Shown here: piece by piece, positions 4,328 through 9,761 of the stretch
Numbering within the stretch: position 1 is the first letter of the stretch
Layout: every line of letters starts with the position of its first letter
Virus record (IMG/VR): IMGVR_UViG_2852342079_000003
Length of the DNA: 64,000 nt
Source of the DNA: an uncultured virus (IMG/VR IMGVR_UViG_2852342079_000003)
Taxonomy: Duplodnaviria; Heunggongvirae; Uroviricota; Caudoviricetes
Direction: 5' to 3' (one strand)
The notes under the pieces: generated by a model
Databases searched by the model: none
What the model was told of the DNA's origin: nothing
The model's input: the letters and a program-made list of their open reading frames with translations, nothing else
Translations under genes and position numbers: made by a program

Positions 4328-5208
4328 TTCCCTTCTGCCTTTTTCCTTAGCATGTCGATAATGGTATTGGCTTCAAATGCGGTTAATTGCTCTGGATGGG
4401 ATATTTGATGGTTGAATTTTTTACTAATGAATGTGAAAAAAGCATCACTCCACTCGCCATTAACTTTAAGCATCAAGTCCGTGATAGCCTTTAATTGATC
4501 TTCACTTGCTGGCGTTATGTCCTTTGCTTTATTTGCTGGCACATCAAAATCATTGCCTTCGCCTGCCTCGGTGTTCACATAATCAATGGCTTGATCTAAC
4601 CTTTCACGACGAGGCCAGTATTTACTTGCTCTTTTCACGATTGTTTTACGAGCCATCTCATCCCACCATGTTTTCCATGGCCCATTTCTTGATTTACTTG
4701 TAGCTTCAACAGCTTTTATCTCATCTAGCCTCATCTCTTCCGTGAGATAGTCACCACTTGCTGTTTTCACTGTGCAATAACCACCAATAACACTACCTCT
4801 GTCACTAAATGCGTTATATTTGTGGGTTGGTGGGGTGTCTAGACCATTGGATTCATAAACGTCATTTTCATGCACTAACTTGCATTGACCCCATTCGATA
4901 GCTTGAGTCGCTTGAGCTAAGTGCATAAGCCCCATGTAGCTAATATCAAGGCAAACAAAACCTTTCCTTGGCACTAAATACGCCAGTTTGCTTGCTGGAT
5001 TCAATGTGATCCCAATCGCTGCGACGTTAATAATGGCGTTCTGTGCGCTAGCGGGGTTTTCCATAGCCACTCTTGCTAGCTCATCATTTCGTTGAAACGC
5101 TTGGATTGCGAACTGGCTTTCCTTAGCCCATGTGATCGTTTGATCTGTCAGTGCGTTACAAAACAATGGTTCTTGTTGCTGCACAAACTCAATAATTGAC
5201 GTGCTCAC
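4324..5208 (-). CDS. RecT-family single-strand annealing protein
   Basis: LNPA.KLAYLVPR, ISYMGL, PW.TWWDEMARKT.VKRASKYWP. Confidence 0.85.
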   Translation of the reverse strand: MSTSIIEFVQQQEPLFCNALTDQTITWAKESQFAIQAFQRNDELARVAMENPASAQNAIINVAAIGITLNPASKLAYLVPRKGFVCLDISYMGLMHLAQATQAIEWGQCKLVHENDVYESNGLDTPPTHKYNAFSDRGSVIGGYCTVKTASGDYLTEEMRLDEIKAVEATSKSRNGPWKTWWDEMARKTIVKRASKYWPRRERLDQAIDYVNTEAGEGNDFDVPANKAKDITPASEDQLKAITDLMLKVNGEWSDAFFTFISKKFNHQISHPEQLTAFEANTIIDMLRKKAEGK

Positions 5209-5456
5209 AATACCTCCTTATCTATCCCAATCTGTATTGCTGTTCTAATTCCATCTAAAACTGCATCAAGTGCTTGGGGGCTAATTTCAAATACCGGATT
5301 TAACTTCCTTGCCAAATCCATGCACAGTAGTTCTTCGGGCAGGCTATCCATAACCTCATCAACTGATATTTTATCTTCCTGAGAATTAACAAACGCTTCT
5401 CGTTCCATTTGGCGTTCGTACCAGTCGTTTCTGAGTCCGTATGTATTCGTTAACAT
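5205..5456 (-). CDS. Hypothetical phage protein
   Basis: GGAGG RBS, coupled to recT. Confidence 0.6.
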   Translation of the reverse strand: MLTNTYGLRNDWYERQMEREAFVNSQEDKISVDEVMDSLPEELLCMDLARKLNPVFEISPQALDAVLDGIRTAIQIGIDKEVL

Positions 5457-5465
5457 AGAGCCTCC

Positions 5466-5642
5466 TTAGGTAAACGCGCGCTCCTTGCGTGTGTTAATTT
5501 CATGCTGAATGAGGTTTGTGCGCTCCATAGACACTTTCATTTTCCATTGAAAAACTAAGTCGTCGATTTGCTCATTTGTCATTTCAGACTCTCGCAATAG
5601 TGCGAATATCTGATGTTTTATGTGTTTCTGCTTTGCGTTCAT
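5466..5642 (-). CDS. Hypothetical protein, 58 aa (MNAKQKHIKHQIF...), not in ORF track
   Basis: Translated by hand; GGAG RBS; stop abuts next RBS. Confidence 0.55.
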   Translation of the reverse strand: MNAKQKHIKHQIFALLRESEMTNEQIDDLVFQWKMKVSMERTNLIQHEINTRKERAFT

Positions 5643-5766
5643 GCTGTACTCCGTATGCTGTTTTTAATGTTTCGTTTGCTTCGCTCCATCCGTCCTCGTC
5701 CGTGAGAGATAAAGCAATTCCAGCTTTACTTTGGGCTACACGTAATTTGTATTTATCAATATTCAT
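5584..5766 (-). CDS. Hypothetical protein in the kil/cIII-like position
   Basis: GAGG RBS; position in the pL operon. Confidence 0.45.
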   Translation of the reverse strand: MNIDKYKLRVAQSKAGIALSLTDEDGWSEANETLKTAYGVQHERKAETHKTSDIRTIARV

Positions 5767-6114
5767 GCTTACCTCTGGATGTGCGAAATCTGCGCTAATC
5801 TTGCGATAGCGATTGTTATTTGGTTTCTCTGGTGTTGGTGCGGTAGGTTAATTACCTGATGCGCTCAGGCTAGCAAGCCAGCTTACATAAATCCTCCGAT
5901 TCAAACGGTGCTTAGTAAATATGGCGAGACCGATTTATCGCCTTTGGTTTATTGGTCTAAAAAAGCTATCTCACCACAGCCCACCTTGATGGACTGTAAT
6001 TAGTTAACTGTGCCTGCTTTTAACCACGTCAGGCGAGGTGGTTCCTTACATTCCCCAATGCAAGAAATTTGTGTATAATTTAATCACCCCAATGCAAAGA
6101 AAAGGATTGAACTA

Positions 6115-6550: not shown

Positions 6551-6862
6551 CTATCTCGCCGTAACCCCGAACCCACTGCTCGGCTGTTTTGTTTTAACTC
6601 CTGAAAATACTGCTACATTAGGTAAGCAACAGTTATCTCCACTTGGATAATGCTTTGTTGGTTTGAGAGAGAGAACAGGGCGTTCTTTCTTCTCTTTCAC
6701 TGAGTTAGCTTTAGCAATTTCTTCTTCTTTCAGTTTGTTAGCTCTGAAAGATGCATATCTAGCGTATTGCCTAGCCTTGAATGAGTTGCTGTTAACTTTC
6801 TTAACGCTAACTGGTGTTGGGTTGCCTTTAAATTTTTTTGGTGGTTGATAGTAAATTTCCAC
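6551..6862 (-). CDS. N-like transcription antiterminator
   Basis: First pL gene; basic ARM-like segment NSFKARQYARYASFR and C-terminal CLPNVAVF..VTAR resembling lambdoid N proteins; boxA upstream. Confidence 0.6.
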   Translation of the reverse strand: MEIYYQPPKKFKGNPTPVSVKKVNSNSFKARQYARYASFRANKLKEEEIAKANSVKEKKERPVLSLKPTKHYPSGDNCCLPNVAVFSGVKTKQPSSGFGVTAR

Positions 6863-7088
6863 ATAACCTCCGTTATTCTTTTACTTACCATAGACCACTC
6901 ATTGAATGACCTAGAATTAGTATTCTTGCGCTTACATACCTAACATCTGCCAGTGTTGCCTATTCCTATCTGTAATCACTCTCGTGCAGTAGTAACATTC
7001 TCACTAGCCAGATCGTGCCTAGTGATACGTCGCATTTTTGCGTAAGGGTCTAAACAGGGTAGGTATGCTGTTCCGACTTTCCAAATTA

Positions 7089-7098
7089 TTAAAGAACA
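7089..7098 (-). promoter_or_regulatory. boxA-like element (nutL)
   Basis: TGTTCTTTAA on the minus strand just downstream of pL. Confidence 0.5.
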
Positions 7099-7141
7099 TT
7101 AGGCTGTTTTTCATGTTGCTTGCCTTTGATGAGTTATATTT

Positions 7142-7179
7142 AAAACTATAGTTGTTTTATTGTCAACAACCAAAGTTGT
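7142..7179. promoter_or_regulatory. OL operators / pL
   Basis: AAAACTATAGTTGT (7142-7155) and ACAACCAAAGTTGT (7166-7179), same 14-bp ACAA-N6-TTGT pattern as OR. Confidence 0.75.
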
Positions 7180-7293
7180 TTATAGTTGTGTTTTTATATT
7201 GGTTTGGTTTTATTTGGTTGTTTTTGTTGGTAATTTATTTTCAAATAAATCTCAGTTTGGAACTCAGATCACTTCTTTGGCAGGGAGAGGGCA

Positions 7294-7319
7294 CAAAAAA
7301 GCCCTCGCGGGGAGGGCTA
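7294..7319 (-). terminator. Terminator of the cI-protease transcript (t-imm-like)
   Basis: AGCCCTC-CCCGC-GAGGGCT followed by a T run on the minus strand. Confidence 0.75.
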
Positions 7320-7330
7320 GATAAATGGAG

Positions 7331-7510
7331 TTATCTAAAATTTAATCTACTCATAGCAGAGGATGAGTTATTGAAAATATCAATTGAACCAAAATTATTT
7401 TTATCTCCAGAGAATATTTTCTTTTCATCTGGAATGGTTATTTCTTTAATAGATTTATTCTGATTTGCTTTTGCTGTTAACTCTGCTTTTTTTGGGTTTT
7501 TCGCTGTCAT
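7331..7510 (-). CDS. Small basic peptide (59 aa) overlapping the protease 3' end
   Basis: ATG at 7510 after AAGGAAGAAAGAG; ends just before the terminator. Confidence 0.45.
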   Translation of the reverse strand: MTAKNPKKAELTAKANQNKSIKEITIPDEKKIFSGDKNNFGSIDIFNNSSSAMSRLNFR

Positions 7511-8423
7511 CTCTTTCTTCCTTAATTTCTTCAACTGGTTGTTGTTCCGATTGAGCTGCCTCTTTTTTTCTTTGTTCTGTCATCTCCCTTATGATAGAGA
7601 GATTTAATACAAGACAACTTCTTGATCTTGTTTTGAATTGCTGATTTACAAAAGATACAATATCTGCTTGGGCTTCATCAAGTGGAGGTGATACATTCTT
7701 GAAGAGTTTAGAAGCCTCTTTCCTATCAATAACGAATGAATGTGATGGATACCCTGCTACTAATTCGTTCATTGCATTGTCTTGTAGTATATGGTCATAT
7801 TCGTTCAGCCTTTCGCCATATGACTCAGCAATTTGAACAGCTCGCTGAACCTCACCTAATTTTATTGGATCAAGTTGAGCATATATCTTAGAAAATAGTC
7901 CTGTCGTCAAGTTAGATGAAAATTCCGCAGCCATTTTTGCTGTAACACCGAAATTTGATTTCATATCTAACAAGTAGTCTTTAAAAGCTGATTTTGCGAA
8001 GTGTTGCAACCCAGATAAAGCTTGATAGTAGTCAAGAGCAGAACTATTTTCGAACATTTCATCTTGTTTCCGCAGCTGAACATCTAGCGGGCCTAGCTCT
8101 CCACAATCACCAATTATTAAATTAGTTGCACCAATTGTTATAAGCGTACCAGCACTTTTGCAGTCACTAGGTATTATTATTGTTAATTTTTTATAGTTAT
8201 GCCTGATAGCTCTTGCAATTCTATAAGCTGCGTTTGGATCACCTCCGTATGTGAGCAAGATAAGTATAGCATCCTTTTCTGGATTTGACTGCCTACATAA
8301 TGATGTTATTTTTTCATATCCATTCCAGTTTATTGGTCCATTGTAATAAAGTAGGTCATGAGTATCTTTATACGGTAGAGATAGATTTTGAAATACATCA
8401 AACATAGATTGGTTATCTGACAT
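7455..8423 (-). CDS. SDH-family Clp-fold serine protease
   Basis: TYGGDPNAAYRIAR, CKSAGTL nucleophile motif, ELGPLDVQ, YPSHSFVIDR motifs. Confidence 0.8.
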   Translation of the reverse strand: MSDNQSMFDVFQNLSLPYKDTHDLLYYNGPINWNGYEKITSLCRQSNPEKDAILILLTYGGDPNAAYRIARAIRHNYKKLTIIIPSDCKSAGTLITIGATNLIIGDCGELGPLDVQLRKQDEMFENSSALDYYQALSGLQHFAKSAFKDYLLDMKSNFGVTAKMAAEFSSNLTTGLFSKIYAQLDPIKLGEVQRAVQIAESYGERLNEYDHILQDNAMNELVAGYPSHSFVIDRKEASKLFKNVSPPLDEAQADIVSFVNQQFKTRSRSCLVLNLSIIREMTEQRKKEAAQSEQQPVEEIKEERDDSEKPKKSRVNSKSKSE

Positions 8424-8560
8424 TAAAGATATCCTTATTGCTTAACTAAAAACAAAGAATTCTCTATATAGAGAGCCATCCATCTGGTGCTAAAATAAGT
8501 TATCTGTTAATATTATTATGTTTAGAACCACACCCTAAAACGTGTCGTCAGGCCATTGTG

Positions 8561-9286
8561 TTAGCCGTGGAACTTATAAGTAATAGACTGGCTAACTAGC
8601 ACCTTAGCGCATATATAAAGCCCATTAAGAGCATCTTCGTCTAGATACCAAGTTTCATATCTAGGGTTGTCAGATATAACTGCTAGGCGCTTATACTGTT
8701 TCTGCAATCGCTTTATGTAGAGCTGGTTATCCAATACGAACACATAAATCCCGTCACCATCAAAAAAGTTTGTGGTTATATCTACGAATATCTGATCCCT
8801 AGGTTCGAACGTTTCAGCCATTGAATCACCTTTTACAGTGATCATCTTTATCGTATTTGAAGGTCTTCCACCGAATAATCTTTTTGCTTCATCCGCTGAA
8901 TACTCAATAGCCGTGATAGTCTCGATAAAATCATCGATAACCATCACGCCAGCACCTGCACTCGCTTCTACGTCTAGTATTTCAACCTTATAAGCATTAC
9001 TAATACCACCCCCTTCATCCGAGTGCGTACCAGTACTTATGTTGCTGACTTCCGAACTATGGATAACAGGAATAGTTGGCTCTTCGCCATTACCAGACGA
9101 CAACCATTCAGGAGAGACCCTCAGAACTTTAGCTATTTCTATTAATTTTGTTGAATTTTGTGCATTTCCAACCTCAATCTTTTGAATTGCAGCCTGTGAT
9201 ATACCAACAGCCTCGCCTAGTTCTTTTTGAGATAAGCCCGACAATTTACGAGCTTTTTTTAATCGTTGTGCAAGAGTAGTTTTCAT
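8561..9286 (-). CDS. cI: CI repressor (434-like HTH plus S24 peptidase)
   Basis: XRE HTH at N-terminus, VKGDSM and YIKRL autocleavage motifs, AG cleavage site. Confidence 0.92.
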   Translation of the reverse strand: MKTTLAQRLKKARKLSGLSQKELGEAVGISQAAIQKIEVGNAQNSTKLIEIAKVLRVSPEWLSSGNGEEPTIPVIHSSEVSNISTGTHSDEGGGISNAYKVEILDVEASAGAGVMVIDDFIETITAIEYSADEAKRLFGGRPSNTIKMITVKGDSMAETFEPRDQIFVDITTNFFDGDGIYVFVLDNQLYIKRLQKQYKRLAVISDNPRYETWYLDEDALNGLYICAKVLVSQSITYKFHG

Positions 9287-9298
9287 AGTCTTAAATAT

Positions 9299-9359
9299 AC
9301 AACCGCAGTTGTTGGCATTCAAACAAATATAGTTGTTGATTAAAAACAACTAAGGTTTT
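9299..9359. promoter_or_regulatory. OR operators / pR-pRM
   Basis: ACAACCGCAGTTGT (9299-9312), ACAAATATAGTTGT (9323-9336), ACAACTAAGGTTTT (9346-9359). Confidence 0.8.
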
Positions 9360-9391
9360 ATTATATGTAAAATAAACAACGGAGGTTTTTT

Positions 9392-9619
9392 ATGAACGAA
9401 GCAATTAAAACCGCCATTGATATTGTAGGGACACAAAAAAAACTAGGTGAAGCATGTGGCATAACACAGCAAGCAGTTTTTAAGTGGCTACATAACAAGG
9501 CAAAAGTATCACCTGAGCATATCCCATTAATTGTTAAAGCTACAAACGGTCAAGTTAAAGGAAAAGATATTCGCCCTGACTTACCGCACTTATGGGATTT
9601 GGGTAATAAATACTGGTAA
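9392..9619 (+). CDS. cro: Cro-like repressor
   Basis: Small HTH divergent from cI, IRPDL ending. Confidence 0.88.
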   Translation: MNEAIKTAIDIVGTQKKLGEACGITQQAVFKWLHNKAKVSPEHIPLIVKATNGQVKGKDIRPDLPHLWDLGNKYW

Positions 9620-9625
9620 CACAAT

Positions 9626-9635
9626 CGCTCTTTAA
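9626..9635 (+). promoter_or_regulatory. boxA (nutR)
   Basis: CGCTCTTTAA directly after cro. Confidence 0.7.
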
Positions 9636-9761
9636 AAATTCATGCAGTGCCTTTTGACTTCAATCGGCAAATTATTATCAACAATCCGCTCATACGGAAT
9701 GAGCCACGGATCATTACTGCTGTTTCCAATATGGGAAGTAATCTAAGAAGGACTTTAACAA

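Follow-up and report, generated by a model that had tools for sequence, protein, structure and literature searches.

An SDH-type ClpP-fold serine protease and an overlapping small gene as a candidate two-gene cassette behind the cI repressor of an uncultured virus

Which function is carried in the rexAB position of the uncultured virus IMGVR_UViG_2852342079_000003 (Caudoviricetes), and is it encoded by one gene or by two? The window, i.e. the whole stretch of 64,000 nucleotides (nt) to which all positions refer if not stated otherwise, harbors at this place a cassette on the minus strand. It comprises the gene of a putative ClpP-fold serine protease and a small open reading frame (ORF) overlapping the 3′-end of this gene. 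Our comparison of the protease family indicates that the overlapping small gene is real, and the unit of protease and small gene is plausibly defensive. The protease family itself probably figures among the listed defence genes already; what is new is the overprinted partner gene, which is nearly universal. The cassette has the following parts:

7455..8423, minus strand: predicted SDH-type ClpP-fold serine protease of 322 amino acids (ORF, Pfam, PHROG, alignment and structure model)
7519..7523, minus strand: internal Shine-Dalgarno sequence AAGGA of the small ORF, within the protease coding region (the aligned place in the relative G002 reads AAGGAG)
7331..7510, minus strand: small ORF of 59 amino acids in the +1 frame relative to the protease, stop codon included in the coordinates (ORF call and relatives)

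An earlier note, made from the letters of this DNA alone, had described a 59-amino-acid ORF with its own ribosome binding site that overlaps the protease gene. This is what is found: AAGGA is located 8 nt before the ATG, and the ORF, read in the +1 frame, shares the final 56 nt of the protease gene. The same note had paired both genes as a two-gene unit and had proposed the conservation of the small ORF among neighbourhoods as a check. For this comparison, relatives of the protease were collected in two sets. In a genome set of one-genome-per-species contigs, 295 of 362 pattern matches encode relatives and 80 were kept. The viral set derives from IMG/VR, where 137 of 147 pattern matches encode relatives and the 80 kept represent 61 distinct proteases. 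At the genome loci, a small ORF was counted if it was located on the same strand, started with ATG, comprised at least 35 amino acids and spanned the protease stop codon. Such an ORF crosses the protease stop in the +1 frame at 73 of 80 genome loci and in the +2 frame at 3 of 81, whereas background genes of at least 200 amino acids in the same loci show an ORF across the stop in 79/338 cases (+1) and 61/336 cases (+2). In the viral set, the numbers are 58 of 61 distinct loci for +1 and 3 of 61 for +2. The small ORF is conserved, and the overlap goes beyond chance. Its frame offset relative to the protease is always +1. The median length of the small proteins is 66 amino acids, and upstream of the protease stop the open stretch has a median of 175 nt in +1 compared with 27 nt in +2. 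Both the pairing and the frame are conserved across phyla.

Comparison of the reading frames within the same DNA shows that in two subfamilies purifying selection acts on the +1 frame and not on the protease tail. For a 99-nt stretch in 11 Burkholderiales-type loci, the mean pairwise BLOSUM62 score is 54.7 in +1, 18.3 in the protease frame and 1.2 in +2, with identities of 36% in +1 and 21% in the protease frame. The corresponding scores for a 114-nt stretch in 11 enterobacterial phage loci are 160.7 (+1), 112.5 (frame 0) and 117.5 (+2), with identities of 79%, 56% and 58%, respectively, the +2 frame containing stops. The third position of the +1 codons is the most variable one in either group (entropy by codon position 1.04/0.97/1.36 in the Burkholderiales-type and 0.33/0.17/0.74 in the enterobacterial phage loci). 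When the segments from -180 to +60 of all loci were compared all-versus-all by BLASTP, the pairs with E <0.01 numbered 65 for +1, 28 for frame 0 and 22 for +2. A hidden Markov model (HMM) of the first subfamily gave 12 matches with E <=2e-11 among 20,510 six-frame pieces, all of them at the overlap site, and the next best match had an E value of 0.17. Furthermore, the likely start methionine was picked from the peptide alignments ahead of any upstream inspection, and GGAG, GAGG or AGGA is located 5-17 nt before the proposed ATG at 33 of 42 loci, compared with 77 of 884 control windows within protease genes. Because of the frame conservation in the same DNA, the subfamily HMM and the upstream Shine-Dalgarno motifs, the overlapping gene is real in this family, separately initiated and under purifying selection. 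The low-complexity tail of the protease is largely a passenger frame of the overlapping gene.

The invariable +1 offset might also be read as the sign of a fusion, in which programmed +1 frameshifting or slippage creates a protease with an alternative C-terminal extension. A run of seven A residues at 7487-7493, located within the two-frame overlap and present in G002 as well, is a possible slippage site. However, A-runs are equally expected from the Lys codons of a Lys-rich coding sequence, and the strong Shine-Dalgarno motif at initiation distance from a conserved ATG at the 33 of 42 loci points to separate initiation. In addition, in-frame fusions carrying small-protein motifs were absent from 283 protease sequences. 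We consider a fused product highly unlikely.

In three records, namely those of Klebsiella phage ST13-OXA48phi12.4 and two RefSeq records of E. coli, the protease is annotated and the small gene is not. The unannotated overlapping gene of about 61 amino acids (MPKNLQPEME...LFAL) is located as follows, in coordinates of the respective record:

6734-7009: E. coli prophage (L085)
6827-7012: E. coli prophage (L086)
5794-6009: Klebsiella phage ST13-OXA48phi12.4 (L001)

PHROG families matched none of the small proteins (0/41 and 0/7), and the sole PHROG match, that of P0124, falls in an unrelated N-terminal part. The last five residues of the small proteins are hydrophobic in 49% of cases compared with 33% in the null (2000 draws, null maximum 40.5%), counted over 120 distinct peptides which are phylogenetically non-independent. 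An attempt to build one profile for all small proteins failed, and the subfamily HMMs remained confined to their own subfamily. The 71-amino-acid hypothetical protein encoded upstream in Klebsiella phage ST13-OXA48phi12.4 was rejected as a conserved partner, for it occurs in its own lineage only.

The larger gene encodes, as judged from its Pfam match, its invariant S/D/H residues and its fold placement by VIA-align, a divergent serine protease of the SDH type with a ClpP fold, whose predicted catalytic set looks intact. Pfam PF01972 (SDH_protease) is matched with 38 bits (gathering cutoff 31.3, E 1.2e-9), the match being confined to protease residues 36-119, which correspond to profile positions 78-161 of 286. 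A second match is to phrog_21683 (E 3.5e-93), which is listed with function unknown. The score for the NCBIfam equivalog NF047768 (Clp_like_SDH) stayed below the cutoff (53.2 vs 250 bits), as did that of NfeD1b_N (18.6 bits, cutoff 40), and no Pfam match to the CLP_protease family was obtained at E <=0.1. E. coli relatives are labelled ‘SDH family Clp fold serine proteinase’ in RefSeq. The motifs for S (KSAGT), D (GPLD) and H (PSH) named in the earlier note correspond to S90 in CKSAGT (codon 8154-8156), D114 in GELGPLD (8082-8084) and H228 in YPSH (7740-7742). These are invariant in an alignment of 15 sequences with 40-78% identity, as are D62, R68, R71, H75, K89, K119, D233 and R234.

In the AlphaFold model of the protease (predicted local distance difference test, pLDDT, 74; predicted template modelling score 0.65), a confident core is accompanied by a floppy loop at residues 116-127 and an unstructured tail at residues 295-322. 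The invariant Lys119 is located in this loop at pLDDT <50. The tail is charged and likewise modelled at pLDDT <50, in agreement with the charged disordered tail described before. The best matches of Foldseek in the PDB are weak, with 3viv (1510-N) at E 1.6e-3 followed by SppA and ClpP. VIA-align places ClpP1 (4jcq) first with Z 13.0 and a root-mean-square deviation of 3.1 over 156 residues, followed by 1510-N (Z 10.9), SppA (Z 10.3) and the crotonases (Z <10). By sequence, the nearest solved structure is 1510-N (E 0.17), with the serine aligned. A further match, in BFVD, is a ‘serine dehydrogenase proteinase’ of a giant virus (E 1.3e-6).

The surroundings of the cassette consist of the following features:

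8561..9349, minus strand: cI-type repressor with a helix-turn-helix domain (HTH_3, PF01381, E 5.6e-15) and Peptidase_S24 (PF00717, E 2.6e-19)
8424..8560, minus strand: cassette leader of 137 nt which moves with the cassette (Shine-Dalgarno sequence AAGGA at 8432-8436, palindrome at 8461-8474)
7300..7318, minus strand: intrinsic terminator, a hairpin (AGCCCTCCCCGCGAGGGCT) with a T run behind it, equivalent of tImm and right-hand junction of cargo exchange (terminator scan)
7085..7200, minus strand: leftward operator and promoter (oL/pL) region, in which operator-like repeats (7144-7195) are accompanied by a promoter-like site (7114-7085)
6551..6862, minus strand: N-like antiterminator gene that opens the leftward early operon (phrog_271, E 1.4e-7; PF25694 under its cutoff)

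Since cI, cargo, terminator, operator-like repeats and N-like gene follow each other in this order, the lambda-type layout is confirmed, and the cassette occupies the rexAB place. The operator-like repeats at 7144-7195 contain AAACAAC/GTTGTTT half-sites, with matching ones beside cI at 9344-9389. As noted before, the protease ORF is located directly downstream of the co-oriented S24 repressor gene, beginning 137 nt after it on the same minus strand, and the unit is closed by one terminator-like minus-strand hairpin at 7318-7300 plus T run. Because a terminator and promoter scan detected neither a terminator nor a minus-strand promoter between cI and the protease, co-transcription of protease and small ORF with cI in the lysogen is the simplest reading.

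The longest ORF of cI begins with TTG at 9349, and the ATG at 9286 (MKTTLAQ...) is the likelier start. On the minus strand, a promoter-like site at 9322-9294 (TTGAAT and TATATT separated by 17 nt) ends 8 nt before this ATG, so that the cI message would be leaderless, as from lambda pRM. Within the mobile cassette, about 40 nt upstream of the protease start, a perfect palindrome of 14 base pairs, TCTCTATATAGAGA, is found at 8461-8474. It may represent an operator or belong to a weak promoter; it was unreported by the repeat search, and the six other loci inspected have no conserved palindrome upstream of the protease.

The cassette is found in other surroundings as well. An IMG/VR contig (L088, 2179-4746) carries the window region 7231-8560 at 99.6% nucleotide identity and no other similarity nearby. 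It belongs to a lambdoid phage that is heteroimmune, its cI (236 amino acids) and its N-like gene being different, and a near-identical cassette behind a different cI points to recent module transfer. One contig of the RNA-library record X3 matches 7284-8550 at about 97% identity with unlike flanks, and a second X3 contig matches only at 7289-7320 and 8520-8551, with 1185 other letters in between. A contig of record X4 has the same pL and cI-cro flanks, 1347 other letters replacing 7319-8482. The junctions of exchange kept in the X3 and X4 contigs are 7289-7320, i.e. the terminator, and 8483-8551, i.e. the first bases past the cI stop. From these comparisons, the window region 7320-8520 appears to be a self-contained and horizontally mobile two-gene cassette, a moron in the slot between cI, terminator and pL.

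Such a position raises the question whether the protease serves the phage's own cycle, by cleaving a repressor, an antirepressor, a CII-like factor or a host regulator and thereby tuning lysogeny or induction. The frequent location of the cassette beside cI-type (S24) repressors or pairs of XRE and M78 (ImmA-like) genes would be in line with such a role. However, since close relatives with the same cI and pL flanks hold unrelated cargo in its place, the cassette is dispensable for the lysogeny switch. Moreover, the same cassette follows a different cI in another phage, and members of the family are also encoded far from any phage genes. A function in the phage's own cycle seems to us very improbable.

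The protease family is widespread. A word-indexed search yielded at least 1327 protein clusters at E <=0.001 among 2232 candidates, labelled ‘SppA protein’ or ‘SDH family Clp fold serine proteinase’. The relatives in the 295 species genomes range from Proteobacteria to Chlorobi, Planctomycetes, Acidobacteria and Cyanobacteria, and further relatives are encoded on the 137 viral contigs of IMG/VR. A copy is present in 49 of 5426 complete E. coli genomes, and tblastn matched 2 of 50,697 GenBank phage records. A scan of genome contigs with the window protein as single query gave no close relative, and the metagenome contigs contained an identical copy only. In three genomes of Competibacteraceae (L005, L006 and L007, at about 4800-6000), the cassette is located between purL and a zinc-type alcohol dehydrogenase gene, and its +1 peptides are 82-87% identical and reach 127 nt beyond the protease stop. 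Here, the cassette seems to be stably chromosomal and not part of a phage.

For the viral set, the nearest upstream ORF of at least 90 amino acids was recorded, leaving out 2 window-type copies and 9 loci without such an ORF. At 21 of 50 distinct viral loci it is a same-strand Peptidase_S24 repressor, and at 3 more a protein with a helix-turn-helix domain only. Both E. coli records examined (2/2) show the layout cI - protease - gap - N. Among the 143 nearest neighbours of 77 genome loci, S24 repressors occur at 5 loci, M78/ImmA-like proteins at 4, integrases at 3 and transposases at 6. PADLOC detected among these neighbours BstA, type I HsdR, PDC-S13, PD-Lambda-2_B, a methylase and PD-DExK, as well as capP/capH-like regulator pairs beside the cassette at 6 loci. 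CapH and CapP are regulators known to control other defence systems. Pairs of an XRE-type helix-turn-helix gene and an M78 (ImmA/CapP-like) gene adjoin the cassette at L010, L045, L056, L064, L066, L074 and L001. In a prophage of Gilliamella sp. (L059, 3663-7732), the slot behind cI contains an 81-amino-acid ORF, the SDH protease with its +1 ORF and, directly after this cassette, a BstA homologue (PADLOC E 6.7e-117); here, two cargo units are stacked in one slot. That the slot behind cI hosts anti-phage cargo, as had been claimed, is borne out by this BstA beside the cassette and by the other cargo replacing the cassette in related phages.

In the explanation which we favour, an SDH-type protease with Ser90, Asp114 and His228 would be produced together with a peptide started from an internal ribosome binding site in the protease tail, in the +1 frame and ending just before the terminator. 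Both would be expressed in the lysogen together with cI and would act as an anti-phage module, by exclusion or by abortive infection. The peptide would restrain the protease or serve as its dedicated substrate, with the C-terminus of the peptide docking at the protease, and infection would tip the balance between the two. The slot, the neighbouring genes and the reported listing of FS_HP_SDH_sah in DefenseFinder suggest the anti-phage role, and we give the proposal of a lysogen-expressed two-gene cassette acting against incoming phages an about even chance. The idea that the protease is controlled by the peptide or uses it as substrate derives from their obligate co-inheritance and coupling, from the disorder and the hydrophobic C-terminus of the peptide and from the precedent of the SppA C-terminus, and is rather doubtful in our estimation. 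In its widest form, the proposal states that SDH protease and overprinted tail peptide form a switch of the abortive-infection or toxin-antitoxin-like type which is widespread and has gone unrecognised. In it, a disordered peptide of about 60 amino acids would gate or feed the protease via its hydrophobic C-terminus, the tail would be a coding shadow, and hundreds of annotated single ‘SDH family proteinases’ would really be two-gene systems. We put this forward tentatively, as a possibility that may well turn out wrong.

Several traits of the cassette would also suit a selfish, toxin-antitoxin-like addiction module, with the protease as toxin, the labile small protein as its antidote and no direct anti-phage role. 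In this case, the difficulty of losing the cassette would account for its persistence. The unit is compact, consists of two genes and is patchily distributed across phyla, often alone between housekeeping genes or near the integrases (3 loci) and transposases (6 loci) mentioned above. Its small partner is fast-evolving, many partners end in nonpolar residues, and some peptide ends look, by eye, like the LAA degron of the ssrA type. Among the characteristics of type II toxin-antitoxin systems, it is the architecture alone that fits, i.e. two coupled genes of which one is small and fast-evolving. However, phages strongly favour the moron slot downstream of cI (21/50), which is the site of lysogen-expressed defence genes, and defence genes adjoin the cassette at several loci. 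We regard a purely selfish module as unlikely, and the toxin-antitoxin and abortive-infection readings are compatible with each other.

The proposal of an anti-phage cassette with two genes also has to be weighed against a number of observations that speak against it. On the level of transcription, the raw RNA reads of X21 have zero depth over 6733-9700, and the RNA-library records X1, X3 and X4 are contigs, which are informative on sequence and not on transcription. Among the defence models to which the earlier note had pointed, those of PADLOC-DB v2 matched neither protease nor peptide (0 families at E <=0.1 for the protease, the small ORF and two neighbours), the N-like protein giving a chance-level match to Cas4c. 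Many family members are flanked by housekeeping genes (purL, rplQ, pheS, infC, obg, rplU, polA, aceE), and many of these are without a phage or defence neighbour. With respect to the overlapping gene in the family, the openness of its frame alone proves little, because the +1 frame of a tail rich in K, E, Q and S is naturally poor in stop codons. Beyond the protease stop, the extension is by itself of ordinary length (median 52 nt in +1, 47 nt in +2), and alignments between the small-protein subfamilies by hhalign are only suggestive (E 0.009, 0.0098 and 0.28). As regards the window copy, the HMM of another subfamily misses the peptide even at E <=10. The peptide, which is polar with a hydrophobic C-terminal end and probably disordered, reaches a pLDDT of 57 when folded alone and is predicted to be disordered. 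Finally, in a variant of 97% identity, the peptide shows 4 non-synonymous changes (A3V, T25I, K31N and G35R) vs 1 synonymous change plus the kept stop.

These last points lead to the question whether the window protease acts alone, its 59-codon ORF being a decaying or non-functional shadow of the overlapping gene of its relatives. In the same 97% variant, the protease has 15 synonymous and 2 non-synonymous changes, and the substitution density at 7334-7454 (5/121 nt) is like that of the upstream leader (5/127 nt) and above that of the protease (17/969 nt). Relatives of the peptide are few, with 1 other protein cluster in a word search and 4 representative clusters among 1.84 billion proteins for the profile of the window subfamily, and the ESM Atlas contains the exact peptide with no usable neighbours. 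However, the ATG and the Shine-Dalgarno sequence are kept between the window and G002, a relative of 78% identity, and the frame is open in every copy seen, including the 97% variant, where the stop is preserved as a change from TAA to TAG. Four differences from G002 fall in the last seven codons (M-x-RLNFR-stop), and three of these are synonymous. The window and G002 peptides align with a Smith-Waterman score of 66, compared with 24.7 +/- 4.5 after shuffling, and 0 of 2000 shuffles scored as high. The G002 peptide in turn resembles those of the relatives of 57% identity (6/2000 and 3/2000 shuffles as high, p about 0.002-0.003), to which the window peptide itself is marginally similar when compared directly (105/2000 shuffles as high). 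The proteins of these relatives comprise 56-68 amino acids, and the peptide alignment shows a common core plus the common end S-x-(A/S)-M-x-x-L; P0122 is a small protein of 56 amino acids among the relatives found. We read the window copy as a fast-evolving, weakly constrained member of the family of overlapping genes. That it is non-functional appears improbable, and so does a protease acting alone.

In the annotations of many bacteria and phages, SDH-type ClpP-fold proteases stand as single genes. If it is true that an overlapping gene accompanies nearly all of them, this provides a handle on the control of the system and explains the odd low-complexity tail. It also exposes a blind spot of gene callers, in which a gene overlapping its neighbour by 50-250 nt stays uncalled. 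The cassette adds a protease-based occupant to the hotspot downstream of cI which is known from rexAB and bstA, and the E. coli version, found in prophages with the layout cI - protease - N, is suited to work in laboratory strains.

The closest known system is FS_HP_SDH_sah of DefenseFinder. It is reportedly a two-gene, experimentally validated anti-phage system on mobile elements with PF01972 (formerly SDH_sah) as signature, attributed to Fillol-Salom et al. 2022, and to our knowledge its mechanism is undescribed. The window protease resembles its SDH_sah component through the Pfam match to PF01972 alone. The window differs in having no gene between cI and the protease, its conserved partner being the +1 overlapping gene downstream. 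The literature searched contained nothing on the function or mechanism of PF01972 proteins in phages, and one article names FS_HP_SDH_sah in passing, with nothing on function (PMC13532340). The earlier description of the cassette as an undescribed system is therefore probably too strong for the whole, given this listing, and holds for the overlapping gene, which as a near-universal, family-wide partner does look undescribed. The Tai system, which stems from the same laboratory and was considered as a possible sequel to the protease system of PICIs, was set aside as unrelated, the terms ‘protease’, ‘SDH’, ‘serine’, ‘ClpP’, ‘SppA’ and ‘domain’ having 0 occurrences each in the searched text of its article (PMC11364771).

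Lambda rexAB and BstA of BTP1 share position and orientation with the cassette, after cI and before the terminator and oL/pL, and presumably the expression in the lysogen. In contrast, their sequences are unrelated to the window proteins (PADLOC gave nothing), and the cassette has a protease. RexAB is a system of the ion-channel type and BstA a DNA-binding abortive-infection protein. The core fold predicted for the window protease is common to ClpP, SppA (S49) and NfeD/1510-N, and the nucleophile Ser97 of 1510-N is located in the same xSAGT turn as the serine of the window protease. According to the title of PDB entry 4kwb, SppA was crystallised with its own C-terminus in the active site, a precedent for C-terminal docking. 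The order of the catalytic residues differs, with a predicted Ser-Asp-His in the window protease, Ser-His-Asp in ClpP and Ser-Lys in SppA and 1510-N. Furthermore, sequence similarity to these proteins is marginal, and the window protease has neither a membrane segment nor an ATPase partner gene.

For the small gene, two precedents come from lambda, both of them without homology to the cassette. In Rz/Rz1, one protein is encoded within the gene of the other in the +1 frame, and both work together. The cassette likewise has its second gene in the +1 frame, and here the overlap is limited to the 3′ tail of the larger gene. CIII, a peptide of roughly 54 amino acids, is a competitive substrate or inhibitor of the FtsH protease and thus a precedent for the control of a protease by a small peptide, whereas in the present case the target would be the cassette's own protease.

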